From: Candidatus Muiribacteriota bacterium
GTDB lineage: Bacteria; Muiribacteriota; Muiribacteriia; Muiribacteriales; Muiribacteriaceae
Length of the DNA stretch: 37,350 nucleotides
Reading direction: 5' to 3'
Assembly (NCBI GenBank): GCA_041654635.1
Contig: JBAZDD010000001.1
Coordinates: 1-37,350 of the forward strand
The position numbers and the translations under genes were made by a program. Below are positions 3,611 through 30,313 of this stretch, piece by piece. Each line of letters begins with the position of its first letter. Position 1 is the stretch's first letter. A model generated the notes under the pieces. It ran no database searches and was not told where the DNA came from. It was given only the letters and a program-made list of their open reading frames with translations.

Positions 3611-3916
3611 ATGGATATTAATGTAATTTTAAATGAAGAAGAATTGGAAGTCACGCTTGAAATTGCTGGTGAAATCACAATAAATAACTTTAATGAACTT
3701 TCTACAACAATTGAAAAAAATATGGGAAAAAACATTGATTTCATACTTGATTTTTCAGGTGTTACATACATCGATTCAGCTGGGATTGGTGGTCTTGTTG
3801 CAAAACTAAAAGAAATTTTCAATTACGGTGGTAATTTAAAAATAATAAATACTCCATCAAAAATTCTTAAACTTTTCAGGTTGACAAAACTTGACAAGTT
3901 TTTTGAAATCTACTGA
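3611..3916 (+). CDS. STAS-domain anti-sigma-factor antagonist (SpoIIAA/RsbV-like)
   Basis: 101 aa. Motif DFSGVTYIDSAGIGGLV carries the phosphorylatable Ser in the DSAG context. The C-terminal KILKLFRLTKLDKFFEIY is typical of the family. Starts 9 nt after the previous stop. Confidence 0.9.
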   Translation: MDINVILNEEELEVTLEIAGEITINNFNELSTTIEKNMGKNIDFILDFSGVTYIDSAGIGGLVAKLKEIFNYGGNLKIINTPSKILKLFRLTKLDKFFEIY

Positions 3917-16827: not shown

Positions 16828-18050
16828 AAAACACGACACTTGATATTATTCTGACAAATGATCTTCATGGTAATTTTCTTGCGTTAAATGCTTCGAATAT
16901 TATTAAACAAAATAGTACAAATAATTGCATTTCTGTAGATACAGGTGATTTATTTTCAAGGTTTTATTCGGGGGAATTGATTATAATGAAAACTCCTGAA
17001 GTAATTGATTTCTGGCTTCCAGGCAATCATGACCTGAGTTCTGAAATACCAAAAATCAGAGATTTTGTACTGAAAGGTAATGTTAAAAAAATTATTTCAA
17101 ATGTCAAACCTGTGGTTGAAAATGATTTTATCGAAAATGTAATAATTGAAATTGATGGAGTGAAAATTGGAATTTTTGGAATAACAACTTATGTCAATTC
17201 TGATTTTTTTAAATTTAAAGATACCGCAAGGACCATAATAGAAAACGTAAAAAAACTTAATGATGTTGATTTTATAATACTTCTCTCACATTTGGGTATT
17301 AATGAAGACAGAAGAATAGCTGAAACAGTTCCTGAAGTGGATTTAATTTTAGGTGGTCACAGCCATACAAGAATGACTTCCCCTGAACTATATAAAAAAA
17401 CACTGATTTTTCATGCTGGAGGATATGGAGAACTTGTTGGGAAAGTTACATTATGCTTTAATAACAAAAAACTTTCAGCTTATTCAGGTCAAAATTATAA
17501 TGTTTCAGAATTTAAAGTAGAAGAGAGTTATATTGAGGAAATTTCAAATTATAAACGAAAATTAAAATCTGTTATTTTTAATAAAGAAAATTTAATATTT
17601 GAAAAATATTCAGATAACGTAATAACTCACGCAGTTCTTCAATCGATTAAACATGAAACTGGAATAAAAAATATCATATTAAACTCAAGTCTTATAAATC
17701 CTGTAATGCTTAAGGGAAAAGTGACTTTTGAAGATTTAAAATACATATTAGGATATCACACTGATTTGTATATAATGTCGGTTTCTATGAAAGATATTGA
17801 AAAAGTATTGAAAAGGTCAACTAAAGACTATTATACAAAATTGCATTTTATTAAAGAGGGGAAAAAGAGAAGTAATCTGGATATGGATTTATTGACCGAT
17901 GTTGTTGTAACCGATTTTCTTGCCCAGGGAGGTCATCATGGCGGTTCTATGTTTCCTGAATTTCGGTTTAAAGATAGAATAAAATTTAAAAAGGATCCAG
18001 TAAAAATTCTTGCTGATTATTTAAAGAACAACTTTGAACATATTGTATAG
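16824..18050 (+). CDS. Calcineurin-like metallophosphoesterase / 5'-nucleotidase family protein (no signal peptide)
   Basis: Ordered motifs TNDLHGN, DTGDLF, PGNHD, LLSHLG and GGHSHT, followed by a C-terminal 5'-nucleotidase-like domain. The TTG start overlaps the upstream TGA. Confidence 0.8.
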   Translation: MKNTTLDIILTNDLHGNFLALNASNIIKQNSTNNCISVDTGDLFSRFYSGELIIMKTPEVIDFWLPGNHDLSSEIPKIRDFVLKGNVKKIISNVKPVVENDFIENVIIEIDGVKIGIFGITTYVNSDFFKFKDTARTIIENVKKLNDVDFIILLSHLGINEDRRIAETVPEVDLILGGHSHTRMTSPELYKKTLIFHAGGYGELVGKVTLCFNNKKLSAYSGQNYNVSEFKVEESYIEEISNYKRKLKSVIFNKENLIFEKYSDNVITHAVLQSIKHETGIKNIILNSSLINPVMLKGKVTFEDLKYILGYHTDLYIMSVSMKDIEKVLKRSTKDYYTKLHFIKEGKKRSNLDMDLLTDVVVTDFLAQGGHHGGSMFPEFRFKDRIKFKKDPVKILADYLKNNFEHIV

Positions 18051-18803
18051 AGAAATGAATTCATCTTTTGAAAGTTGTTCAGGTCTTTTGTTTATAACAC
18101 TTGTATCAAAATCAATATTATTGATTTTCAAATTAGCTTTGACACTCTTTCTTTTGGCTAAAAAAAGTTTTTTTAAAAAATCAAAATAGTTCAAGGTTGG
18201 TGCGAAAGTGTTTTTTGGGATTATTTCAAGGAGACATGAATCTACTCTTGGTCTTGGGAAAAAACTGTTTTTGGAAACATGACTGAAAATTTTACAATCA
18301 CAAGTCGTGTTTAAAAAAATCGTCTGTGCATTTACCGGATTACATTTAACAACCTTGACTGCAAATTCTTTTTGAACCATCACAAGAATTTTTTCCGGAA
18401 GGTTGATGTTTGTAAGCAGTTTTTTTAGTATCTCTGAAGTAACAGAGTATGGAATATTTGCTATTACAGAATATTTTTTATTTATTGGAAGTGCACTTTT
18501 TAAAAAATCCTGCCTGATTAAAGATAAGTTTGGGAATTCTTTTTCAAGTTTTTTAACAATATTATAAATTCTATCATCAGATTCGTATGAAATAACTTTT
18601 TTTTCTGTTTCGCAAAGTTTTGATGTTAAAACACCTGCACCGGTACCAATTTCAATTATTATATCTGAATCTGTATGAGTTGAATATGTTTTCATCATTT
18701 CTAAAATATCATTGTCTTTGAGATAATTCTGACCATGGGTTGACAATAGAGAAAAATTTTTGTTTACTATTTCATTAAAAATGTCTTCGCGTATAGTTTT
18801 CAT
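18021..18803 (-). CDS. rsmA: 16S rRNA (adenine1518/1519-N6)-dimethyltransferase
   Basis: HGQNYLKDNDIL, SAM-binding IIEIGTGAGVLT, and VIANIPYSVTSEIL (the NIPY motif). C-terminal RPEQLSKDEF. Confidence 0.93.
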   Translation of the reverse strand: MKTIREDIFNEIVNKNFSLLSTHGQNYLKDNDILEMMKTYSTHTDSDIIIEIGTGAGVLTSKLCETEKKVISYESDDRIYNIVKKLEKEFPNLSLIRQDFLKSALPINKKYSVIANIPYSVTSEILKKLLTNINLPEKILVMVQKEFAVKVVKCNPVNAQTIFLNTTCDCKIFSHVSKNSFFPRPRVDSCLLEIIPKNTFAPTLNYFDFLKKLFLAKRKSVKANLKINNIDFDTSVINKRPEQLSKDEFISLYNMFKVVL

Positions 18804-18923
18804 GATTTCATATTATAACACATTTAAATTATTAAAAAAAAATAAAAAAATTATTTAAAAATAAATAATTATGTGTTAAAATACGATAATAATATAATAA
18901 TTACAGTACTGGACTTTATTTAT

Positions 18924-21146
18924 ATGAAAAAAAACGTATATTTTGAAGATGAATCTGTTCGCATATCAATGCAGACAAAACTTATGATACTATTTCTTAT
19001 TGTTGGAATTATTCCCTTGATAATACTTGGTTACAGAGCTTTTAACGACCAGAAAATTGTTATCAGAGAGCTTATTATAACCTCTAACTCAGGTATTGCA
19101 AACGTTGTTGCTCAGGAACTTAATCATAAAATTATCACTGTTCATCAGATGTTGAATTCTACCTCAAGAATACCAAGTTTTCAGGATGATAATTTTGGTG
19201 AAGAAATTGAAACAATTTTAAGAACAACAATAAAAAATTTTCCTATTTTCAATGCACTTTATTATATTGACAGATACGGAACAAAAGGTATGGCAGCTTA
19301 TGATGATTTTGGTGTAAAGGTTGAATCTCTTGAAAAAATAACTGAAATTGACCCTAATGTTTTAAAATACTGGTATCAGGGTATCGTCCGTGGAGCAAGT
19401 GTAAGTAAAGGCTTTTATTCAGATGTATATTTTAAAAAAAATAATAAAATTATGAGTGATGATGTTGTTGAACCTTTCCAGTTAATGGGAGTTTATGTAA
19501 AAGATAAACTTTCAGATATGATTGGAGTTCTTATAGCTGAAATAAAACTCAGTGAAATATGGGAAGTTGTAAACAGAATAAAATTTGGAGAAACTGGTTT
19601 TGCTTTTGTTGTTGATGATAAATCAGGATTTCTTATTGCTCATTCAAACGATAAAATAAATCCTGGAATTAAACTGCTTTCTGAAGATAAAATTCAAGAA
19701 ATTAAATCTTTTGGTCTCGGGGGCTCTACAACTCTTGACAGATATTCAAGAACGCTGAAACTTGTTTCATACGTTCAGACTGAACTTTACACCAAAGGTA
19801 ACGTTACAGATATTAAAGAATTATTTACTCCCGACTGGGGTGTTGTTGTAGAACAGACTGAAAGAGAAGCTTTTGAACCAGCAAAAAGACTTATGTTGAA
19901 AATTATTTTCATAGTTGTTCTTGGAACCATGCTGGCAGTTCTTCTGGCTATATTATTTGCTCATGGTATTACACGTGCGATGAAAACTCTGCATGTAGGA
20001 GCTTTAAATATTGCAAACGGGGATTTAACTCAGGAGCTTTTTATTGAATCTGAAGATGAAATTGGTGAGCTTGCAAGAGCTTTTGATAAAATGAGAATTA
20101 ATCTTCGAAAAAAAATTAATGATTTAAAAATTCTATATGAAATAAGTCAGACCATAAGCGCAATACTTGATTATAAAGAATTAATGTCAAAAATAATGGA
20201 TGTTACTGTAAAAGTTCTTGAAGCTGAAAAAGGTTCAATAATGCTTTTTGATGATGAGTCAGAAATGCTTACCATCGAAGCTTCTTATGGATTACCGACA
20301 GATATTAAAAGAGATACTTTTATTAATCCGAATAAAGGTATTGTTGCATGGGTTCTTAGAACAGGAAAACCTCTTCTTATTTATGATACGATGAAAGAAG
20401 CTGGATTTGAAAAAATGAAAGGAAGAAAAGTTGAAAGTGGAACACTGCTTTCCGCTCCACTCAAAGTTAAAGATAAAATTCTTGGTGTTATTAATATTTC
20501 TAAATCAATACCAAATACTTATACTGAAAGTGATAAGGAGCTTTTTACTGCAATCGTGCTTCAGGCTGCCATCGCTATCGAAAAAGCTATTTTATACCGA
20601 CTTGCAATTACAGATGGTATGACAAAACTATATATTCACAGATATTTCCAGCAGAGATTTGATGAAGAACTTGCACGTGCAATAAGATATAAAAAACCAC
20701 TTTCTCTTATAATGTTTGATATTGACCATTTTAAAAATTTCAATGACACATATGGACATCAGGTTGGAGACAAAGTATTAAAAATTGTTGCAAGACTGAT
20801 TGAAAAAAGTATAAGAGACGTTGATATTGCCGCAAGATATGGTGGTGAAGAGTTTGCAATCATACTACCCGAAAAGGATTGTGAGGCTGCTGCAATCCCT
20901 GCTGAAAGAATAAGAAAAAATATTGAAGATAATGAATTTTATGTTGAAGATAAAATAGTTCCAATAAGAGTAAGTCTTGGGGTTTCATCGTATCCGGAAC
21001 ATTCAGATAATAAAGCAGAATTAATAGAATTTGCGGATACAGCTCTTTATTATTCAAAAGAGACAGGCAGAAACCGATATACATTGTTCTCGCCTGAAAT
21101 ACTTGAAAAATTAAATAAAATGAAGTGTGAAAAAAAGGGAGAATAG
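18924..21146 (+). CDS. Membrane sensor diguanylate cyclase: periplasmic Cache-like domain, TM, HAMP, GAF, GGDEF
   Basis: TM helices at LMILFLIVGIIPLIILGY and IIFIVVLGTMLAVLLAILFA. HAMP segment NIANGDLTQELFIESEDEIGELARAFDKM. GAF segment LEAEKGSIMLFDDE...GVINISK. Active site RYGGEEFAIILP, with an I-site RDVD five residues upstream. The start could be the ATG at 18924 (chosen), the ATG at 18969 or the GTG at 18873. Confidence 0.9.
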   Translation: MKKNVYFEDESVRISMQTKLMILFLIVGIIPLIILGYRAFNDQKIVIRELIITSNSGIANVVAQELNHKIITVHQMLNSTSRIPSFQDDNFGEEIETILRTTIKNFPIFNALYYIDRYGTKGMAAYDDFGVKVESLEKITEIDPNVLKYWYQGIVRGASVSKGFYSDVYFKKNNKIMSDDVVEPFQLMGVYVKDKLSDMIGVLIAEIKLSEIWEVVNRIKFGETGFAFVVDDKSGFLIAHSNDKINPGIKLLSEDKIQEIKSFGLGGSTTLDRYSRTLKLVSYVQTELYTKGNVTDIKELFTPDWGVVVEQTEREAFEPAKRLMLKIIFIVVLGTMLAVLLAILFAHGITRAMKTLHVGALNIANGDLTQELFIESEDEIGELARAFDKMRINLRKKINDLKILYEISQTISAILDYKELMSKIMDVTVKVLEAEKGSIMLFDDESEMLTIEASYGLPTDIKRDTFINPNKGIVAWVLRTGKPLLIYDTMKEAGFEKMKGRKVESGTLLSAPLKVKDKILGVINISKSIPNTYTESDKELFTAIVLQAAIAIEKAILYRLAITDGMTKLYIHRYFQQRFDEELARAIRYKKPLSLIMFDIDHFKNFNDTYGHQVGDKVLKIVARLIEKSIRDVDIAARYGGEEFAIILPEKDCEAAAIPAERIRKNIEDNEFYVEDKIVPIRVSLGVSSYPEHSDNKAELIEFADTALYYSKETGRNRYTLFSPEILEKLNKMKCEKKGE

Positions 21147-21153
21147 TTTTTAA

Positions 21154-22653
21154 ATGAATTTTACAAGATATATGTTAATAAACATTCTTAATTCTGTTAT
21201 ATGGTTTCTTTTTTCATTCCGACTTTCCAGCAATTACAGCTGGATTTTCTGGATTTTCACAGCATTTTTTTTCATAACAAACACTATATATTTCTGGAAT
21301 AAAAATGATGATGAAGTATTTCAACGAACCGACACTTCTTTGTACATGACTTTTAACAATGGGGTTATGACTCTGGTGTTTTTCATGTTTATGACTGAAA
21401 TCGAACTTATTTATAAATTTCTGGCCATAGCACTTTTTCTTTTTATTGCACTTATTGCAACCAATTCAAGAAATGGTGACAGAAAAGATGTGTTTGAACT
21501 GAAAAATTTACTTGATTCAAAAATTCAGGAATTAGGTGAACTTCACAACATAAGTTCTGCCATAAACAGCATATTAGACCTTGAAAGATTGCTTGATATG
21601 GTTTTGTCAGTAACAGTAGATGTTTTAAAAGTTGGAAGAGTAAGTCTTTTTCTTTTTGATGAGGATAAAAAAAATCTTATACTTAAAATCAGTAAAGGGT
21701 TGAAAAAAGAGCTTATAAATAATCTTAAAATAAAAATAGGTGAAGGAATTATTGGAAAAGTTGCTGAAACAGGAAAACCACTTCTTATAAAAAATATTGA
21801 AAAAGAAATGCCAGAGCTTATTGAAAAATCAAAACATAATGAAAATCAGGATGAAAATAAAAAAGAGCATTATAAAACAAATTCTTTTCTATGTGTTCCC
21901 CTGAAAATTAAAAATGAAACTATTGGAGTTTTAAGCGTTAATGATAAAAATAATAATGAAATTTTTAACGAAAATGATCTTGAACTACTTACAATTCTTT
22001 CATCCCAGATAGCTGTTGCAATAGAAAATGCAAATCTTTATGATACAATGAAAGACAGTTATAAAAGTACAATCAAAGCACTTTCAAATGCTCTTGATGC
22101 AAAAGATTCCTATACTGGTGGTCATTCTTCCCAGGTAACAAAATACGCACTTCCTATTGCACTGGATTTAGGATTTGATAAACATTTTATTGAAAGACTT
22201 GAATACGCTGGGATGCTTCATGATATAGGTAAAATAGGAATTATTGAAACAATTTTGAATAAAAATGGAAGACTTACAGAAGACGAATTTGATGTAATTA
22301 AAAAACATCCAGTGATTGGTGCTGACATTTTAAGTTCAGTTTCTTTTCTTGAGGATATAGTTCCCATTGTAAGATATCATCATGAAAGATGGGATGGTAA
22401 TGGTTATCCTGAAGGTCTGAAAGGCGAAGATATACCTGTAGGTGCCAGAATTATTGCTGTAGCAGATACATTTGATGCTATGACCTCAGATAGACCATAC
22501 AGAAAAGGGCTTCCAGCAGAAATCGCAAGAGCTGAAATTGAAAGATGTTCTGGAAGTCAGTTTGACCCGGCGGTTGTTAAATCATTTTTAAAACTTTTTG
22601 ATGAAGGAAAAATTGTTGTTGAAAAATATGAATCTAAAAACAGGTGGTTTTAA
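21154..22653 (+). CDS. Membrane-anchored GAF/HD-GYP c-di-GMP phosphodiesterase
   Basis: N-terminal hydrophobic helices. GAF segment (KIGEGIIGKVAETGKPLLI...GVLSVNDKNN...IAVAIENANLY). HD-GYP motifs GGHSSQV, MLHDIGKIGI and HHERWDGNGYPEGL. Confidence 0.92.
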   Translation: MNFTRYMLINILNSVIWFLFSFRLSSNYSWIFWIFTAFFFITNTIYFWNKNDDEVFQRTDTSLYMTFNNGVMTLVFFMFMTEIELIYKFLAIALFLFIALIATNSRNGDRKDVFELKNLLDSKIQELGELHNISSAINSILDLERLLDMVLSVTVDVLKVGRVSLFLFDEDKKNLILKISKGLKKELINNLKIKIGEGIIGKVAETGKPLLIKNIEKEMPELIEKSKHNENQDENKKEHYKTNSFLCVPLKIKNETIGVLSVNDKNNNEIFNENDLELLTILSSQIAVAIENANLYDTMKDSYKSTIKALSNALDAKDSYTGGHSSQVTKYALPIALDLGFDKHFIERLEYAGMLHDIGKIGIIETILNKNGRLTEDEFDVIKKHPVIGADILSSVSFLEDIVPIVRYHHERWDGNGYPEGLKGEDIPVGARIIAVADTFDAMTSDRPYRKGLPAEIARAEIERCSGSQFDPAVVKSFLKLFDEGKIVVEKYESKNRWF

Positions 22654-23411
22654 TGTATATTGATTCTCATGCCCATATTACTCATGAAAATTTTGATGCC
22701 GACCGTGACGAAGTCATAAACAGAGCCATTGAGAATAAAATAGAAAAAATTATTAATGTATCATACGATCTTGATACCATGATGGATACTTTAAAAATTG
22801 TTGAGCAGTATGATTCAATTTATGGAACACTGGGAATTCACCCACATCATGCTGATGATTTTGATGATTCAATTCAAAATTATCTTATAAACTACCTTAA
22901 ATATAGAAAAATAATTGCGCTGGGAGAAATCGGACTTGATTATTTCAAATGTTATTCAAAAAAAGAAAATCAGATCAGTGCTTTTGAAAAACAGCTTGAA
23001 ATTGCAAAAAAATTTGAAAAACCAGTTGTTATTCACTGTCGAGACGCTTATGATGAAACTCTCAGCATTTTAAAAAATTCAAATATAAAACACGGGGTTA
23101 TGCACTGTTTTTCAGGCAACGAGAAACAGGCTGAAGATTTTCTTGAACTGGGATTGCATATTTCTTTTACAGGCACAGTAACGTGGAGAAAAAGCGATGT
23201 TTTACCGGTAAAAATTGTTCCAAAAGACAGACTGCTTCTTGAAACTGACTGCCCATACATGACACCTTCTCCAAATCGCGGAAAAAGAAATGAACCAGCA
23301 TTTATCATACACACAGCACAGAAAATTGCCGATATCAGAAATGAAAGTATTGAAGAACTCAGCAGTAATTGCTTTCAGAATACTTTAACACTTTTCAGGG
23401 GGTTGGATTAA
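22653..23411 (+). CDS. tatD: TatD-family metal-dependent hydrolase/DNase
   Basis: The ATG overlaps the upstream stop (TAATG). Motifs YIDSHAHI, GEIGLDY, VVIHCRDA, VMHCFSG and LLLETDCPYMTP. Confidence 0.92.
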   Translation: MYIDSHAHITHENFDADRDEVINRAIENKIEKIINVSYDLDTMMDTLKIVEQYDSIYGTLGIHPHHADDFDDSIQNYLINYLKYRKIIALGEIGLDYFKCYSKKENQISAFEKQLEIAKKFEKPVVIHCRDAYDETLSILKNSNIKHGVMHCFSGNEKQAEDFLELGLHISFTGTVTWRKSDVLPVKIVPKDRLLLETDCPYMTPSPNRGKRNEPAFIIHTAQKIADIRNESIEELSSNCFQNTLTLFRGLD

Positions 23412-24109
23412 TGGCTGACGGCGCTGGGGAACATCTTGAAAAATTAGAGCAGGGGTTGAACCTTCTTATTGAGGTTAAATCTGGTCTTTTCAGGGGAAAC
23501 TATCTTTCATCAATTGTTAAAATTGTGAAAAATCAGGAATTATACATACAGATACCTGAAAACAATGATGGAACTCAGGTTAAATTCTGGCCAAAAACTC
23601 TTTTAAGCCTGAGTTTCTTCAGAGAAAATGAACCAGGTGCTATTTACATATTCAATGAACCTTTAATAAGAATTGAGGAAGGTGTAAAGCCAAATCTTGT
23701 AATAGATTTTCCAAAATCTATAGAAAGAATTCAGCGAAGAAACTATGTAAGAGTTGATGTCAGACTCCCGTTTTATTATCAGAAATATACATTAAGCGAA
23801 GAACCGGAAATTATTCCAATTTTGAAAAAAGGTTATATTATGGACGTTTCAGGGGGTGGAGTTTTTCTCAGAACTCCTGAAAAAATGGAAAAAGATCAGT
23901 TTGTTCAGACAAAATTCAAGCTTGGTGATGAAGAGTTTGATATAAAAGGTAAAATAATGAGAGCAATATCGATAAGACGCGGAAAATCTGTAATGTATAA
24001 ATATGGAATAAATTTTGAAGAAATAATTGATATGGTTAGAAGAAAAATAATAGGTTATGTTTTTGATGTTGAACGTTCAAATATCAGAAAACAGAAAGAG
24101 GCTTACTGA
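23411..24109 (+). CDS. PilZ-domain c-di-GMP receptor with a YcgR-like N-terminal domain
   Basis: The ATG overlaps the tatD stop (TAATG). PilZ motifs QRRNYVRV (RxxxR) and DVSGGGVFL (DxSxxG), preceded by a roughly 110-aa PilZN-like domain. Confidence 0.8.
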   Translation: MADGAGEHLEKLEQGLNLLIEVKSGLFRGNYLSSIVKIVKNQELYIQIPENNDGTQVKFWPKTLLSLSFFRENEPGAIYIFNEPLIRIEEGVKPNLVIDFPKSIERIQRRNYVRVDVRLPFYYQKYTLSEEPEIIPILKKGYIMDVSGGGVFLRTPEKMEKDQFVQTKFKLGDEEFDIKGKIMRAISIRRGKSVMYKYGINFEEIIDMVRRKIIGYVFDVERSNIRKQKEAY

Positions 24110-24546
24110 TGAAAATTAAAATAAATATTATTGATGAAAAAAACTTTATCAGTCCTGAGTATATGTCTGAAAATGCTGCCGGAGCTGATATTTATTCCTG
24201 TGTTGATGAAAATATTTTAATAAAACCAAATTGCAGCGCGCTTATTCCCTGTGGATTCTCAATGGAAATCCCCCATGGTTATGAAGTGCAGATAAGACCT
24301 CGAAGTGGTCTTGCTTTTAAAAACTGTATAACCGTACTTAATTCTCCGGGAACAATTGATTCAGATTATCGTGGAGAAGTTAAAGTTATTCTTATCAACC
24401 ATGGGAAAGAAGATTTTACAGTAACAAATGGAATGAGAATAGCTCAGATGATTGTCAATAAAGTTGAGAAAGCTCAATTTGAAATTTCTGACAATTTATC
24501 TGAAACAGGTAGAGGCAGTGGTGGATTTGGTCATACCGGAGTATAA
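24109..24546 (+). CDS. dut: dUTP diphosphatase (trimeric dUTPase)
   Basis: The five dUTPase motifs: AAGADIY, IRPRSGLA, SPGTIDSDYRGEV, RIAQM and GRGSGGFGHTG. Confidence 0.95.
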   Translation: MKIKINIIDEKNFISPEYMSENAAGADIYSCVDENILIKPNCSALIPCGFSMEIPHGYEVQIRPRSGLAFKNCITVLNSPGTIDSDYRGEVKVILINHGKEDFTVTNGMRIAQMIVNKVEKAQFEISDNLSETGRGSGGFGHTGV

Positions 24547-26138
24547 TGAATAACGTTCAGAAGCTTGAAAAAGAGAATAGAGAACTAAAACATGCGTTAG
24601 ACAACTTGATTATTAACTTCAATAAGCTGTCAAATAGATTTCTTCATTCAACCACACTTGAAGAAAGTCTTGATGCAATTTTCGATCTTTTTTTTGAAAT
24701 GTTTACCTATGAAGAAATTGCAGTTTATTTAATGAAAGACAATTTTGAACTTGTAAAATACAGAAATTTATCCGAAGAATCCTATGAAGAAGTATCAGAT
24801 ATTCAGGAAGAAAACATATTTGACTGGGTTATTCTTCAAAATAAGAGAATAATATTGGACAGAAAATACAAGGAAGGAAGTTATATATTTCTTCCTCTAA
24901 TAATGAAAAATCGCTCGCTTGGTATTCTGCTTATTGGAACAGCAAAAGACAGTAACAATCTTACAAAAGAAGAACAGGACATTCTTGATATAATATCAGC
25001 TCAGGTAACCGTTTCAATTGAAAATTCAACATTATATTCTTCAATTGATGATCAGAAAAGAAAACTTGATAATATTAAAAATTATCTGAATAATGTTATT
25101 GAAAATTTTAACGAAGGTCTTATTGTAGTTGACAACGATTATATTGTAACCACAATAAATAAGGCAGCCGAAACTTTTCTTGGATTTACAAAAAAAGATA
25201 TTCTGCTGAAAAACATAAGACTTTTTTATTCAAACTGGTTTACACCTGAATTTTTTGAAAAAATTGCCCAATGTCTTCATGACAGTGAAATAAAAAATCA
25301 CATGGTGGAACTTGCGGGGAAATACCTGAAATTTACAATACTTCCATTTGAAGGAATTCATAAAAACATTACAGGGGCAATAATTCATATTGAAGATATT
25401 ACAACTTCAATGGAACTTGAAAAATTAAAAGAAATTGATGATTTTAAAGATCAGGTTATTTCAAACGTTTCACATGAACTTAAAACTCCTCTTACTTCGA
25501 TAAGAGCTTATACAGAAACTTTGCTTGAGATAATCGCATCTGATAAAAAAGGCTATCCTGAAGAATTTAAAGAATTTTTATCCGTAATCAACGATGAAAG
25601 TGAAAGATTATTGAATCTTATAGTAGAAATTCTTGATACTTCAAAGCTTGAATCGGGAAATGTTTCATTAAATTTGGTAAATCTTGATATAGGTGTTATA
25701 ATTAACAAAATCATTACAGGAATAGATTATTTAATTAAAGAAAAAAAAATCACAGTAGTAAAAAAATACAGCGATCAGGAAAATTTTGTTATCAAAGCTG
25801 ATTTAATAAAACTTGAACAGGTTTTTTATAACATAATAAGTAATGCGATAAAATATAATAAAGATGGCGGTAAAATAATTATTTCTTTAACTAAACAGAA
25901 AAAATCTGTTAAAATAGAAGTTGAAGACACCGGAATTGGAATTGCTGAAAAGAATCTGGAAAAACTTTTTGAAAAATTTTTCAGAGAACAGTCTGAACAC
26001 ACTGATAAAATTGGAGGATTCGGATTGGGACTTAATATTGTGAAAAATATAATAGACCTGCACCAGGGTTTTATTACATTTAAATCGGAAAAAGGGAAGG
26101 GAACAAAAGTAATTATTAAATTTCCTTATGAATTATGA
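24546..26138 (+). CDS. Cytoplasmic sensor histidine kinase: GAF, PAS, HisKA, HATPase_c
   Basis: GAF segment (SLGILLIGTAKDSNN...VTVSIENSTLY). PAS segment (VIENFNEGLIVVDNDYIVTTINKAAETFLGF). H-box VSHELKTPLTSI. N-box ISNAIKYN. G-boxes EDTGIGI and GGFGLGLNIV. No TM helix. TAATG overlap with dut. Confidence 0.9.
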   Translation: MNNVQKLEKENRELKHALDNLIINFNKLSNRFLHSTTLEESLDAIFDLFFEMFTYEEIAVYLMKDNFELVKYRNLSEESYEEVSDIQEENIFDWVILQNKRIILDRKYKEGSYIFLPLIMKNRSLGILLIGTAKDSNNLTKEEQDILDIISAQVTVSIENSTLYSSIDDQKRKLDNIKNYLNNVIENFNEGLIVVDNDYIVTTINKAAETFLGFTKKDILLKNIRLFYSNWFTPEFFEKIAQCLHDSEIKNHMVELAGKYLKFTILPFEGIHKNITGAIIHIEDITTSMELEKLKEIDDFKDQVISNVSHELKTPLTSIRAYTETLLEIIASDKKGYPEEFKEFLSVINDESERLLNLIVEILDTSKLESGNVSLNLVNLDIGVIINKIITGIDYLIKEKKITVVKKYSDQENFVIKADLIKLEQVFYNIISNAIKYNKDGGKIIISLTKQKKSVKIEVEDTGIGIAEKNLEKLFEKFFREQSEHTDKIGGFGLGLNIVKNIIDLHQGFITFKSEKGKGTKVIIKFPYEL

Positions 26139-28381
26139 ATAGAAAAATATACGAAAAATTCAGTATTGAGGATTGGATAAGGCTTGTAAGTATAAACAAT
26201 GCTATTGTTTCTGAGTTGCAGCTTGACAAAGTGCTTATTCTTATTCTTAAAAACGCTTTATCCTCAATAAATGCAATGCATGGTTCACTCATGCTTTTTG
26301 ATGATGAAGAATCTGATACTCTGAAAATTGCTGTTGCAGTAGGTATTCCACATAATATTATAAAAAAAGTTAAAATTAAAGTCGGGGAAGGAATTAGTGG
26401 AGAGGTTGCCAGAACAGGTGAGCCAGTGCTCATTCAGGATGTTGAGCATGACCCGGTTTTTGCAAGAAAAAACAGACCAAGATATTTTACAAAATCATGT
26501 CTTTCAGTTCCTCTTGTGTTTAAAAATAAAGTTATAGGTGTGTTCAATGTAAATGATAAGAAAAACTCAAAACAGTTTACTGAAAAAGACCTTATTTTTT
26601 CAAATACACTCGCTTCTCAGGCTGCGATTGCCATAGAAAATGCAAAATTATACATGCAGGTAAAAAAAGATAAAGTCAAACTTGAAAATCTTAACGTTGA
26701 ACTTGAAGAAAGTCTTTTTGCACTTTCTGAATATACTGAAGAACTTTTTGTATTTCATGAATTTACAAAAAAAATTTTTGATAAAGTTATAACATATATG
26801 GATTTAGATGAACTTACAGGAAAAATTTGTGAACTTTTCATGGAGCTTGAACCAATAAAATCAGATCTTGTAATTCTAAACTTTTTTGACAAAAATATTT
26901 TCAAAGTTTACAGTAAATCTGGTGAAGAAAAAAATTTTTCAAGCAGTGAAAAAGAAATAATATTAAAGATTTCAGATTATTGTCAGAAAAATAATGAATC
27001 AATGAGAATTCCTTTTGAAGAGGAAAGATATAAATTTTTTGAACAGGAAGCTTTAAAACATTACAATTCACTTCTTTCTGTTCCATTATATGGTAAAAGC
27101 GGCTCAATAGGTGTGCTCACTCTGGTAAAGAAAAATAAAAAATCAGGTTTATTTGATGAAAAAATCAGAAATCTGATGCTTATTTTTTCACTTCAAGTTT
27201 CAACAGCTCTTTCTCTGGTTTCAGCTTTAGAAGAAGTAATGAAAAAAAAGGTAATGGAAAATGAGTTGAAAGTTGCAGCAAAAATCCAGAAAATGTTTCT
27301 TCCTCGTGAAAACCCACTTGTTCCGGGACTTGAATTAAGTCATATCAACATTCCGACTTTTGAAGTTGGTGGAGATTATATTGATTTTCTCTGGCATAAT
27401 AATTCTAATCTGGGAATAAGTATTGGAGATGTTTCTGGAAAAGGCATTCCTGCGTCTCTCATAATGGCACTTACAAAATCCATAGTAAAGTCAAATGTTA
27501 CTCTTTACGATTCTCCAAAAGAATTACTTGAAAAAATAAACTATGAACTTCTTACAGAAATTGAAGGACACAGATTCGTTACCATGGCTTTTGGATTTTA
27601 CAACTGGGAGACAAGAAAACTTGAAATTGCGAAAGCAGGTCATAATCCACCACTTATATTTAAGAAAAGTGGAGAAATAATATCAATAAATCCTCAGGGG
27701 CTTTTCCTTGGAATGTTCCGAGACTGTATAATAAGACAGGAAGAATACAATCTTGATGTCGGTGATGTTCTTGTTTTATATACTGACGGGGTTATTGATG
27801 CAGAAGATTCAAAAGGTGTGAATTTTGGGTTAAAAAAAATGGAGAAAATAATCAGAGATAATATTGAAAAAAGTCCTGAAGAAATAAAAGACAAATTAAT
27901 AAAAAAACTTGAAAACTTTTATAAAGGTCAAAAACAGAATGATGATATATCAATTATAATTTGTAAAGCAATAGATTATTTTGAACGAAAATTTATAATA
28001 TCTTCAAATAAATCCCAGATACCAAGGTTACACTGGTACATTCAGAATCTTCTTAAAATGAAAGGTTATGAAAATGAGGATTTGAAGTTTAAAATAAGAC
28101 TCATTATAGATGAAATTTTAAGCAATGCTATTGAGCATGGTAATAAATACAATGATAATCGAAACATAGCAATATACCATAAAATTACATCAAAAAATCT
28201 CACAATTAAAATAATAGATGAAGGCAAGGGTTTTAACTGGCAGGAAAAAATCAGTAAGCAATGTGATATTAACATAAAATCAGAACGAGGCAGAGGTATT
28301 ATTATTGTTAAAGAGCTTTGCTCTTCAATAAAATACAACAAAAAAGGAAATGAAGTAACAATTAAAATTGATTTGGAATAG
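26135..28381 (+). CDS. Fusion protein: GAF, GAF, PP2C/SpoIIE-type phosphatase, RsbW/SpoIIAB-like serine-kinase (HATPase) domain
   Basis: GAF1 (KVGEGISGEVARTGEPVLI...GVFNVNDKKN...AAIAIENAKLY). GAF2 (SVPLYGKSGSIGVLTLVKK). PP2C motifs GGDYIDF, GDVSGKGIPASLIMA, LVLYTDGVIDAE and NDDISIII. C-terminal IDEILSNAIEHGN...IIDEGKGF...ERGRGIIIVKEL. ATGA overlap with the kinase gene. Confidence 0.85.
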   Translation: MNRKIYEKFSIEDWIRLVSINNAIVSELQLDKVLILILKNALSSINAMHGSLMLFDDEESDTLKIAVAVGIPHNIIKKVKIKVGEGISGEVARTGEPVLIQDVEHDPVFARKNRPRYFTKSCLSVPLVFKNKVIGVFNVNDKKNSKQFTEKDLIFSNTLASQAAIAIENAKLYMQVKKDKVKLENLNVELEESLFALSEYTEELFVFHEFTKKIFDKVITYMDLDELTGKICELFMELEPIKSDLVILNFFDKNIFKVYSKSGEEKNFSSSEKEIILKISDYCQKNNESMRIPFEEERYKFFEQEALKHYNSLLSVPLYGKSGSIGVLTLVKKNKKSGLFDEKIRNLMLIFSLQVSTALSLVSALEEVMKKKVMENELKVAAKIQKMFLPRENPLVPGLELSHINIPTFEVGGDYIDFLWHNNSNLGISIGDVSGKGIPASLIMALTKSIVKSNVTLYDSPKELLEKINYELLTEIEGHRFVTMAFGFYNWETRKLEIAKAGHNPPLIFKKSGEIISINPQGLFLGMFRDCIIRQEEYNLDVGDVLVLYTDGVIDAEDSKGVNFGLKKMEKIIRDNIEKSPEEIKDKLIKKLENFYKGQKQNDDISIIICKAIDYFERKFIISSNKSQIPRLHWYIQNLLKMKGYENEDLKFKIRLIIDEILSNAIEHGNKYNDNRNIAIYHKITSKNLTIKIIDEGKGFNWQEKISKQCDINIKSERGRGIIIVKELCSSIKYNKKGNEVTIKIDLE

Positions 28382-28403
28382 CATATATATGCAGGGGGCG
28401 GAT

Positions 28404-28775
28404 TTGAAAAAGATACTGGTGGCTGATGATGAAAAAAATATTCTGAGAATTATTCAGTTTAATTTGACAAAAGCAGGATATAATGTCATAACAGCAGAGG
28501 ATGGTGGAGAAGCTTTTGAAAAAATAGTTAAAGAGAAACCAGACCTTGTAATTCTTGATATAATGATGCCAAAACTGAATGGGTTTGAAGTTTGTTCAAA
28601 AGTGAAAAAAGAGTTGAAAATGAAAGTGAAAATTATTCTGCTTTCAGCTAAGGGTCAGAAAAATGATATAGAAAGAGGAAATGAATCAGGAGCAGATAAA
28701 TATCTGGTAAAACCATTCAGCCCTAAAATATTATTAGAAACAATAGAGGAAATGCTAGGGTCTGGCCGCGCCTGA
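28404..28775 (+). CDS. Single-domain CheY-like response regulator receiver
   Basis: KILVADDEKNILRII, phospho-acceptor context DLVILDIMMPKLNGFEV, then LSAKG and KYLVKPFSP. The TTG at 28404 sits 5 nt after AGGGGG. The in-frame ATG at 28389 is an alternative start with no SD. The last 5 codons and the TGA lie inside the 51-bp repeat. Confidence 0.88.
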   Translation: MKKILVADDEKNILRIIQFNLTKAGYNVITAEDGGEAFEKIVKEKPDLVILDIMMPKLNGFEVCSKVKKELKMKVKIILLSAKGQKNDIERGNESGADKYLVKPFSPKILLETIEEMLGSGRA

Positions 28776-28872
28776 AGTTGAGCTTAAATATGCGGCCTGA
28801 CCCATCGTTTTGCTGGCCGCGCCTGAAGTTGAGCTTAAATATGCGGCCTGACCCATCGTTTTGCTGGCCGCC
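28762..28872. repeat. GC-rich 51-bp tandem direct repeat, 2.2 copies, with internal GGCCGC/GCGGCC inverted repeats
   Basis: CTGGCCGCGCCTGAAGTTGAGCTTAAATATGCGGCCTGACCCATCGTTTTG occurs at 28762-28812 and identically at 28813-28863. A partial copy CTGGCCGCC follows at 28864-28872. I count 28/51 G+C, against a roughly 30% background. Confidence 0.9.
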
Positions 28873-28906
28873 AGTTTTATAGCTATTATTGCTTTGGAGG
28901 AAATTA

Positions 28907-29242
28907 ATGAATTTAGAAGAAAAAATCAAGTTTATTGTTGAAAAAATTGAAGAAAAGAAAGGAATAGACATTTTAGTTGTAGATGCTCCTGAAAAACAGC
29001 TTATTGATAAATTTGTAATCTGTTCCGGCTCTTCAGACCCTCATATAAAAACAATATATGAAAATTTAAGAGTAAGTCTCAAAGATAATAATGTTCACAT
29101 TTACAATATTGAGCAGAATTTTAATCTGGCAGCGGGATGGCTTGTTATTGATACAGGAGATGTTGTAGTACATATAATGAGTGAAGAAAAACGCGAATAT
29201 TATGAGCTTGAAGATTTATGGAGTGAATACATAGGTAAATAA
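28907..29242 (+). CDS. rsfS: Ribosomal silencing factor RsfS (iojap family)
   Basis: ATG at 28907, 6 nt after GGAGG (28896-28900). Motifs DILVVDAPEKQLIDKFVICSGSS and WLVIDTGDVVVHIMSEEKREYYELEDLW. Confidence 0.9.
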   Translation: MNLEEKIKFIVEKIEEKKGIDILVVDAPEKQLIDKFVICSGSSDPHIKTIYENLRVSLKDNNVHIYNIEQNFNLAAGWLVIDTGDVVVHIMSEEKREYYELEDLWSEYIGK

Positions 29243-30313
29243 ATGGCAGAAATATCTGAAATTATATTTAAACTTGATAGTACAGACCCGAATATATGGC
29301 GTGATGCAATAGAAAGTTTGAAAAATGTTGATAAAAATCAGGCAAAAAGACTGTTGATGCAGATTATTACAACTTCTCCTGATTTGGGTAAAAAATATCT
29401 TGCAAAAAAAGTTCTTGCTGAAATAAATCCGCAGGAAGCTTCAAAGGTTTCGGATGAACCTGAAAAACCAAAACCTGTTTTACAGAACACCGAAGCTAAT
29501 GCTTCACCAGAAAAATCATCAGGAAGTAAGCTGTCTGATTATCTCCATTCAGATGATTATGAAACAGTTGTCAAAGCAATAATGCATATAATGCAGAATA
29601 ATCTTAAAGATTTTCTCCCACAGCTTGTAAATATGCTTAAACCGGAAGCTCATCCTTTTGTGAGAGCTACTCTGGTGAAAGCATTATGTAAATTGGGTGG
29701 GGTTAATTATCTGAAAATTGTTGTAATTTATCTGAAAGATGAAGATAACAGAGTGAGAGCAAATACTATTGAAGCACTTGAAACACTCGGACATTCAGCA
29801 GTTTTTCCTTATATAATGCCTATGATAAATGATCCTGATAACAGAGTAAAAGCAAATGCTCTAAAAGCAATAAAAAATCTTGACAGAGAAAAAATGTTAT
29901 CAGTTATAAAAAACATGATGGCTTCAAAGGAAGATTATTATGTAATATCAGCTATGTTTGTAATAGAAAGTCTTGAACTTACCGAGCTTGACAGAGAGCT
30001 TGAACAACTGATGGATGACGATAGAGATGAAGTTGCTCAGAAAGCAAGAGAACTTGGTCAAAAGCGCGGATTAAAATCATCCTCAGCTTCAACAACTCAG
30101 GAAAATGTAGATTTCAAGGGAATTGTTGATAAGGTGATATTAAACAGAGGATTAGTTTTAAAAAATGAAAAAGGCGTGAGAGTAGGAGTGATTTTCCCTG
30201 ATAACTCCAAAATCGCATTAAATCAGATGATTGGAGTATCAGGAAGGTTAGTTAAAGATGACAGATATTTTTTTATTCTACCAACAAAAATTGGGCTCAT
30301 ACGGCAGAATTGA
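29243..30313 (+). CDS. HEAT-repeat protein (PBS-lyase-type HEAT repeats), function unknown
   Basis: Repeated units such as PFVRATLVKALCKLG, DEDNRVRANTIEALETLG and DPDNRVKANALKAIKNL. A low-complexity linker is followed by a roughly 70-aa C-terminal domain I cannot assign. Confidence 0.6.
   Translation: MAEISEIIFKLDSTDPNIWRDAIESLKNVDKNQAKRLLMQIITTSPDLGKKYLAKKVLAEINPQEASKVSDEPEKPKPVLQNTEANASPEKSSGSKLSDYLHSDDYETVVKAIMHIMQNNLKDFLPQLVNMLKPEAHPFVRATLVKALCKLGGVNYLKIVVIYLKDEDNRVRANTIEALETLGHSAVFPYIMPMINDPDNRVKANALKAIKNLDREKMLSVIKNMMASKEDYYVISAMFVIESLELTELDRELEQLMDDDRDEVAQKARELGQKRGLKSSSASTTQENVDFKGIVDKVILNRGLVLKNEKGVRVGVIFPDNSKIALNQMIGVSGRLVKDDRYFFILPTKIGLIRQN

Follow-up and report, generated by a model that had tools for sequence, protein, structure and literature searches.

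Eight consecutive + strand genes at positions 18924 to 28775 of a 37-kb window from a Candidatus Muiribacteriota bacterium (the window being the whole stretch of DNA that was analysed, 37,350 nucleotides with a G+C content of about 30%) are predicted to encode two enzymes and a receptor of cyclic di-GMP (c-di-GMP) signalling, a TatD-family nuclease, a dUTPase, a histidine kinase, a PP2C phosphatase-kinase fusion and a CheY-like receiver. We consider it reasonably probable that two older signalling cassettes, each self-sufficient, were combined with single-copy housekeeping genes to give this cluster, which would be a composite polycistronic array. Judged from gene order in the relatives compared, the array is module A, comprising the first four genes, followed by dut and then by module B, and the two modules are contiguous only in the Muiribacteriaceae. 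Gene content was established by Pfam and NCBIfam domain calls, in a source genome that is a 2.44-Mb metagenome-assembled genome, 87% complete. A preliminary description of the locus had counted nine genes; the count is eight, and its own listing also names only eight. Its domain assignments for the listed genes were borne out, and the diagnostic motifs are all intact.

The same gene order was found in all four Muiribacteriaceae genera compared (this genome and genomes G001, G002 and G003), with protein identities of 56 to 69% between the window and the other genera. In G003, all eight genes are present and are followed by rsfS and by genes for a HEAT protein, a small membrane protein and Omp85. 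The array of G002 lies on two contigs, with the break inside the PilZ gene, and has the same upstream genes, including the divergent rsmA. Gene order was also kept in G001 (Muiribacterium halophilum), in which a C-terminal fragment of DapB (109 amino acids, L015 11743-12072) stands between dut and the kinase gene, and in which the cyclase ortholog is split into three open reading frames (ORFs) in three frames (172, 281 and 300 amino acids; L015 15781-18072), either as a pseudogene or through assembly frameshifts. The preliminary description had proposed a search for this gene order in relatives; since the order is kept in four genera, the cluster is by that test not a chance juxtaposition.

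In another family of the same GTDB phylum, represented by Wallbacteria-type genomes, the cluster exists as two unlinked pieces, which in G008 lie on different contigs and in different contexts. Module A alone, with genes for a dCache-HAMP-GAF-GGDEF protein, a GAF-HD-GYP protein, TatD and a PilZ protein, was found in G008, in G014 (Candidatus Wallbacteria) and on metagenome contigs L035 and L036. The domain architectures in the Wallbacteria-type genomes are those of the window, and the lengths are near-identical. Downstream of module A there are three kinds of neighbour: dut, a convergent holB or a DHQ-synthase-like gene. In family f4, module A is not conserved as a unit: the neighbours of the PilZ ortholog in G012 differ in size, and tatD in G006 lies 20 kb from the PilZ gene.

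Module B occupies the other contig of G008, as a series of genes for an HDOD protein, a GAF-PAS kinase, a PP2C-HATPase_c_2 protein, a receiver and RsfS. The order HDOD-kinase-fusion-receiver-rsfS was also observed in G006, and a variant with the order TPR-TPR-receiver-fusion-rsfS was present in G007 and on metagenome contigs L037 to L039. The receiver of G007, encoded upstream of the fusion, is 44% identical to the window's downstream receiver. Because the receiver is found on either side of the fusion, the receiver/fusion pair forms the constant core of the module and rsfS its constant follower. In G001, G003, G006, G007, G008 and L037 to L039, which represent four families, rsfS is found behind the receiver gene or the PP2C fusion gene; by this comparison, the 3' unit of module B is one that extends to rsfS, past the end given in the preliminary description. 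A related-locus search with the PP2C protein alone recovered no relatives among named genomes, and a genome search was used instead. Upstream of module B in G006 (L017 612-3119) is a gene for an 835-amino-acid protein with the bacterial tubulin-like Tubulin_2 domain, followed by several genes for TPR proteins; TPR proteins also precede module B in G007.

Module A (18924-24109) would constitute a local c-di-GMP circuit. The membrane cyclase is a predicted c-di-GMP synthase: its GGDEF domain matched PF00990 with 163 bits against a cut-off of 23.8, and GGEEF lies at residue 640. An inhibitory I-site of the form RDVD-x5-GGEEF, with RxxD five residues upstream of GGEEF and the motif at residue 631 (RDVDIAARYGGEEF), suggests that synthesis is subject to product inhibition. 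The ATG start of this protein at 18924 is backed by ortholog alignment from residue 1, with orthologs that are 67% identical in G003 and 42 to 45% identical in Wallbacteria-type genomes. The membrane GAF-HD-GYP enzyme, which would degrade c-di-GMP, has hydrophobic N-terminal segments, matched HD_5 (PF13487) with 143 bits and carries HDIGK at residue 356 and HHERWDGNGYP at residue 409.

The c-di-GMP level would be read by the YcgR-like PilZ protein, which carries one of only two PilZ domains in the genome. This protein matched PF12945 (PilZNR) with 33 bits against a cut-off of 23 and PF07238 (PilZ) with 44.9 bits against 22.5. Both c-di-GMP motifs are present, RxxxR as RIQRR/RNYVR and DxSxxG as DVSGGG, and residues R109, R110, R114, D145, S147 and G148 to G150 are invariant in 10 orthologs. 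FliG_C was detected in G000 (a partial match at a contig end), G001 to G003, G006 and G007. The PilZ protein is most likely a flagellar brake, with control of swimming as the output of module A.

Module B (24546-29242) would act as a split partner-switching controller of the HsbR/CrsR type. The GAF-PAS histidine kinase has intact H, N, G1 and G2 boxes (HELKTP, NAIKY, DTGIG and GFGLG), and the receiver retains DD13, ILDIMMP with the phosphoacceptor D57, and KP108. For phosphorylation of the stand-alone receiver by the kinase there is one line of evidence, the adjacency of their genes in G000 to G003, G006 and G008, which makes this step a candidate. Kinase orthologs are encoded upstream of the PP2C fusion in G006 and G008. 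The fusion, predicted to be a bifunctional serine phosphatase and RsbW-like kinase, matched SpoIIE with 163 bits and HATPase_c_2 with 61 bits; it contains all four PP2C aspartate motifs (GGDY, DVSGKG, TDG and DDIS) and the N and G boxes of RsbW-type kinases (EILSNAIEH, DEGKG and GRG). Full-length orthologs with 34 to 35% identity were found in two other families (G006 and G007), and an ortholog from a third family (G008) was 31% identical, aligned from residue 182 on and had no detectable GAF domain. In the proposed mechanism, the receiver sets the balance between the phosphatase and kinase activities of the fusion, which would then act on a STAS protein encoded elsewhere in the genome, with rsfS cotranscribed as the last gene of the module.

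Above the Pfam cut-off, the genome contains 16 STAS matches, none of them in the cluster; there was no match within the 18-30 kb part of the window, and the nearest lies at 3650-3913. A paralogous GAF-GAF-PP2C-HATPase_c_2 fusion (C2:6416-8629) has a STAS gene within a few kb (C2:14156-14792), whereas the fusion of the cluster has none. A STAS gene (C200:3449-3751) also lies near the gene for a GAF-GAF-PP2C protein in which no kinase domain was detected (C200:350-2584).

The sensory input to both modules was examined through their GAF domains, of which the cluster contains five, as the preliminary description had stated and as Pfam and a hidden Markov model (HMM) search confirmed. An HMM made from these five detected 25 GAF domains in 19 ORFs of the genome, many in other GGDEF or HD-GYP proteins; with so many across the genome, GAF is the preferred cytoplasmic sensor of the lineage. 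Near-identical ligand-pocket strings in the GAF domains of three cluster proteins had been taken to suggest paralogous modules that sense a common ligand. The domains themselves, however, are only 33.6 to 42.5% identical: in the genome, GAF-A of the PP2C fusion and the GAF of the HD-GYP enzyme are each other's best match (42.5%), and the cyclase GAF has 33.6% identity to either of them. These strings are also found in GAFs from distant phyla, including the cAMP-binding GAF of Leptospira Lcd1 (5W10; GEGIAGSVVQTKSPIFV) and that of Persephonella PmGH (4MCW; KGIAGYVFRTGEILNI ... IENAILY).

A tree of the GAF domains of this genome alone left their relations unresolved, and addition of orthologs resolved five strongly supported clades, one for each GAF (supports of 96/99 for the cyclase, 99/96 for HD-GYP and 95/90 for PP2C GAF-B; within the family, 99/95 for PP2C GAF-A and 100/96 for the kinase). 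The cyclase and HD-GYP clades span Muiribacteria and Wallbacteria, and no sister relation among the three similar GAFs was supported in this tree. Each GAF is thus an old orthologous clade that predates the split between Muiribacteria and Wallbacteria, and recent paralogy did not survive the phylogeny. The 20 columns common to the three GAFs are largely the same in Lcd1 and PmGH and are present in 22 to 89% of the other GAFs of the genome; when residue signatures confined to the three were sought, none was found. The shared strings are generic, and the common-ligand argument drawn from them fell with this finding.

A cyclic nucleotide is a plausible ligand for these GAFs. In a more specific form of this proposal, the three similar GAFs (of the cyclase, the HD-GYP enzyme and PP2C GAF-A) sense a cyclic nucleotide, probably cyclic AMP (cAMP), such that cAMP from class III cyclases would set the synthesis of c-di-GMP, its hydrolysis and the partner switch together. 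This proposal is consistent with the match of PP2C GAF-A to the cAMP-binding GAF of Lcd1 (E 1.7e-21), with the six class III cyclase domains in the genome and with the documented activation by cAMP of a GAF-GGDEF enzyme (Lcd1) and a GAF-HD-GYP enzyme (Tlr0485) (PMC8846402). However, the cyclase GAF matched Lcd1 weakly (E 3.6e-6) and the PmGH GAF better, and the shared columns are mostly structural and frequent in the other GAFs of the genome. We therefore regard a common cAMP input as possible but doubtful.

The same evidence bears on whether the array is one pathway. The preliminary description had presented it as a single integration of three signalling systems, a view that does not hold for the Wallbacteria-type relatives, in which modules A and B are separate cassettes on different contigs. 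In an integrated pathway, the partner switch would feed the c-di-GMP branch or the reverse, for example through activation of the cyclase by a phosphorylated STAS protein or through control of the three GAF enzymes by a shared ligand or by c-di-GMP. The contiguous order in four genera, in which stop codons overlap the next start, would agree with such a pathway, as would the reciprocal best match of PP2C GAF-A with the HD-GYP GAF, the status of the sensor GAFs as the most conserved parts of the proteins (73 to 83% identity between genera) and the precedent of HsbA and HsbD, where a STAS protein under HsbR control is the activator of a diguanylate cyclase (PMC5085249). Nevertheless, neither the Wallbacteria-type relatives nor two other families have the modules linked, the clades of the GAF domains are old, are not supported as sisters and lack an exclusive signature, and the junction between the modules holds the housekeeping gene dut and, in G001, the dapB fragment as well. 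An integrated pathway is in our view unlikely. Cross-talk between modules A and B is possible by analogy with HsbA and HsbD, but the separate histories of the modules argue against an obligatory link. In the composite array that we favor, A and B became contiguous in the Muiribacteriaceae, with dut at the joint, and would probably be read from the AT-rich region upstream of the cyclase gene.

The presence of tatD and dut within the array had been left unexplained in the preliminary description. TatD matched TIGR00010 with 263.5 bits against a cut-off of 206 and has the metal-ligand motifs HAH, GEIGLD and HCR; the dUTPase matched NF001862 with 189.9 bits against a cut-off of 103, with GTIDSDYRG and RGSGGFG as motifs 3 and 5. 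Each of tatD, dut and rsfS is single-copy in the genome, and every other member of the family and each Wallbacteria-type genome likewise has one tatD. Because they are single-copy, the tatD and dut of the window are housekeeping genes and not specialised paralogs. The position of tatD was kept in G001, G002, G003, G008, G014 and L035/L036. Because tatD keeps this slot whichever of the three neighbours lies downstream, its placement is more than chance, and by these comparisons the slot in module A predates the Muiribacteriaceae. In contrast, dut stands at the joint only in the Muiribacteriaceae and is absent after the PilZ gene in G008, G014 and L035. The puzzle is thus partly explained for tatD, as a fixed member of the cassette and the sole tatD of the genome, which would travel inside module A; dut is a single-copy gene at the joint. 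A further neighbour was seen at the end of module A in G008, where holB, encoding the delta' subunit of DNA polymerase III, is convergent to the PilZ gene (L031 5037-6083).

A functional role for the housekeeping genes was also considered. TatD, and perhaps the dUTPase, could be working parts of a nucleotide circuit, with TatD degrading the linear dinucleotide pGpG released by the HD-GYP enzyme or being controlled by the PilZ protein. That tatD stays between the HD-GYP and PilZ genes in two families and three downstream contexts, joined to its neighbours by overlaps, is compatible with this role, as is the NCBIfam name of the E. coli TatD model, '3'-5' ssDNA/RNA exonuclease TatD'. On the other hand, the sole TatD of each genome must also carry the housekeeping duty, and it evolves faster than its signalling neighbours (52 to 57% identity between genera, compared with 66 to 73% for PilZ), and dut is at the joint in one family only. 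NrnA-type nanoRNases are a usual route of pGpG removal, and each genome encodes two DHH proteins of about 325 amino acids, which match NrnA in size; these also weaken the idea that TatD serves as the pGpG nuclease of a lineage in want of a nanoRNase. A TatD-based nucleotide circuit is consequently highly improbable. We give equally little credence to the broader proposal that none of the housekeeping genes are passengers, in which TatD takes part in the turnover of c-di-GMP or of linear dinucleotides or is a PilZ-controlled nuclease, and in which rsfS is kept because the partner switch controls ribosome silencing in starvation. If true, a tatD or rsfS link would connect signalling by second messengers or by serine phosphorylation with a core function of nucleic acids or ribosomes; no description of such a link was found in the literature examined.

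The genes of the array are co-directional and tightly joined, as first reported. From 5' to 3', the junctions are a 7-nt gap, TAATG, TAATG, TGATG, TAATG, ATGA and a 7-nt gap, so that all are 7-nt gaps or overlaps of 1 to 4 nt; the ATG starts used to define them are backed by ortholog alignments. The short and overlapping junctions stand, but the weight placed on them was overstated: nearly the whole window is one-directional, most same-strand junctions are equally short, and tight spacing is the rule across the window and no special mark of this cluster. The array is probably cotranscribed as one polycistron, and the AT-rich region between rsmA and the cyclase gene is probably its promoter region. 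Within that region, a promoter scan placed a promoter-like site at 18854-18882, although such sites were not enriched relative to shuffles. The segment at 18811-18883 consists almost entirely of A and T, and a 13-bp inverted repeat (TATTATAACACAT / ATGTGTTAAAATA) marks its edges. A terminator scan and Rfam detected no internal terminator or RNA element in the cluster, and the Rfam scan of 18000-29400 detected no riboswitch or other RNA family.

At the 3' end of the receiver gene lies a GC-rich 51-bp unit, specific to this genome, in two perfect tandem copies and a partial third. It supplies the last codons and the stop of the receiver gene and is predicted to form a stable structure (-53.6 kcal/mol; z = -3.7), behind which come a short hairpin and a run of U. 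A terminator or attenuator function is possible for this element. The receiver and rsfS genes overlap in G001 and G008. Other copies of the unit were observed in the same genome, one with 89% identity on contig C52 (8082-8128) and partial copies of about 24 nt on C68 and C6.

Several of these observations weigh against the composite array and its proposed outputs. The flanking housekeeping genes are also collinear within the family, so gene order within the family is no proof of selection for the whole array, and conservation of the junction between A and B may be inertia. The promoter and terminator scans performed no better than on shuffles, and the array may contain internal promoters; in this genome, moreover, the stable GC-rich fold between the receiver gene and rsfS has a terminator-like tail. 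For module A, the YcgR-type output is argued solely from domain architecture and the presence of flagellar genes. For module B, no STAS substrate gene adjoins, unlike hsbA or crsA, and G007-type genomes have no kinase gene next to the receiver/fusion pair.

Coordinates of the array and of adjoining features in the window.
Feature	Position	Strand	Basis or remarks
rsmA/ksgA	18021-18803	minus	NCBIfam; divergent from the cyclase gene
Intergenic region, AT-rich, divergent	18804..18923	+	Between rsmA/ksgA and the cyclase gene; probable cluster promoter region
Module A gene 1, dCache_1-transmembrane (TM)-HAMP-GAF-GGDEF protein, predicted diguanylate cyclase	18924..21146	+	Pfam, motifs
Module A gene 2, TM-GAF-HD-GYP (HD_5) protein, predicted c-di-GMP phosphodiesterase	21154..22653	+	Pfam, motifs
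Module A gene 3, TatD/YcfH-family metal-dependent nuclease	22653..23411	+	TIGR00010
Module A gene 4, YcgR-like receptor, PilZNR-PilZ	23411..24109	+	Pfam, motifs
dut, trimeric dUTPase, at the A/B joint	24109..24546	+	NF001862
Module B gene 1, cytoplasmic GAF-PAS-HisKA-HATPase_c histidine kinase	24546..26138	+	Pfam, motifs
Module B gene 2, GAF-GAF-PP2C(SpoIIE)-HATPase_c_2 fusion	26135..28381	+	Pfam, motifs, 3KE6 match
Module B gene 3, stand-alone CheY-like receiver	28389..28775	+	Pfam, motifs
GC-rich 51-bp tandem unit	28762..28872	+	Sequence, RNA fold
rsfS, ribosomal silencing factor, beyond the array as first described	28907..29242	+	Pfam

The signalling load was very heavy for a 2.4-Mb genome. 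In addition to the 16 STAS matches over the cut-off, there were at least 7 PP2C ORFs, 6 HATPase_c_2 ORFs, 25 GAF domains, about 9 GGDEF domains, about 8 HD-GYP domains, 6 class III cyclase domains and only 2 PilZ domains.

Every component of the array belongs to a well-known family; the arrangement is new, and no new kind of system is involved. The new facts of most use are the two-module origin, the presence of tatD in a c-di-GMP cassette and the presence of rsfS behind a partner-switch cassette, the latter two being conserved signalling-housekeeping adjacencies that are flagged here. A pair of delimited, conserved cassettes is added in the little-studied Muiribacteriota and Wallbacteria. Module A comprises a predicted maker, breaker and reader of c-di-GMP, and both modules would be minimal circuits that could be reconstituted from four or five proteins. 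The array also illustrates how, in a genome that is compact and one-directional, independent units can be strung together into what looks like one long coupled 'operon'.

Among known c-di-GMP systems, module A resembles those of enterobacterial YcgR and of the YcgR homologues of the Leptospirales (PMC11800159), with which it shares the PilZNR and PilZ domains, intact RxxxR and DxSxxG motifs and a flagellated lineage. It differs from these systems in that the same cassette encodes its own cyclase, its own HD-GYP enzyme and tatD, and in that the PilZ protein lacks the GAZ insertion; c-di-GMP binding and motor interaction are here predictions from sequence alone. The two enzymes of module A can be compared with Lcd1 (GAF-GGDEF, 5W10), Tlr0485 (GAF-HD-GYP) and PmGH (GAF-HD-GYP, 4MCW), in which a GAF domain likewise lies directly upstream of the catalytic domain and carries the strings GEGI.G.V..TG.P and IENA.LY. 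Unlike these proteins, both cluster enzymes add membrane or periplasmic sensor parts, and the similarity of the cyclase GAF to Lcd1 is weak. The gene order of module A also recalls a presumed holB-pilZ-tatD neighbourhood of Pseudomonas, for which a literature search gave no support, and the presumed holB-ycfH pair of E. coli: a PilZ-domain gene would stand beside a TatD-family gene, as in the window, and holB adjoins in G008. The PilZ of Pseudomonas, by comparison, consists of a single domain, serves as a type IV pilus factor and is not known to bind c-di-GMP.

In Rv1364c of Mycobacterium tuberculosis, the sensor is a PAS domain, and a STAS substrate domain is part of the same chain. Residues 394 to 704 of the window's fusion matched the phosphatase and kinase of this protein (3KE6) with an E value of 7.5e-14, and both proteins join a sensor, a PP2C phosphatase and a GHKL serine kinase in one chain. 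In contrast to Rv1364c, the sensors of the fusion are GAF-GAF, and STAS is neither fused nor adjacent.

The closest functional parallel to module B is offered by the HptB-HsbR-HsbA(-HsbD) system of Pseudomonas aeruginosa and the CrsR-CrsA system of Shewanella oneidensis, in which HsbR and CrsR have the architecture REC-PP2C-kinase (PMC5085249, PMC6482189). As in the fusion of module B, PP2C is followed by an RsbW-like kinase/anti-sigma domain in one polypeptide. In these systems, a receiver domain phosphorylated through a His-Asp relay decides which activity prevails; phosphorylation of the fused receiver of HsbR switches the protein from kinase to phosphatase toward its STAS protein (PMC5085249, PMC6482189). 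In Pseudomonas, the system is connected with a diguanylate cyclase and with the control of flagella (PMC5085249, PMC6482189); the HsbR-controlled STAS protein HsbA, in its phosphorylated form, binds and activates the cyclase HsbD (PMC5085249). In module B, by comparison, the receiver is a separate gene, downstream of the fusion here and upstream in G007, GAF-GAF occupies the N-terminus of the fusion, a classical histidine kinase and not an Hpt protein adjoins, rsfS is a conserved downstream gene, and the link to a cyclase is through gene neighbourhood only, in one family. Because the N-terminally fused receiver and the adjacent STAS gene are both absent, module B was not placed in the HsbR/CrsR family; by analogy, we infer that it is a split HsbR-like switch that works as HsbR does.

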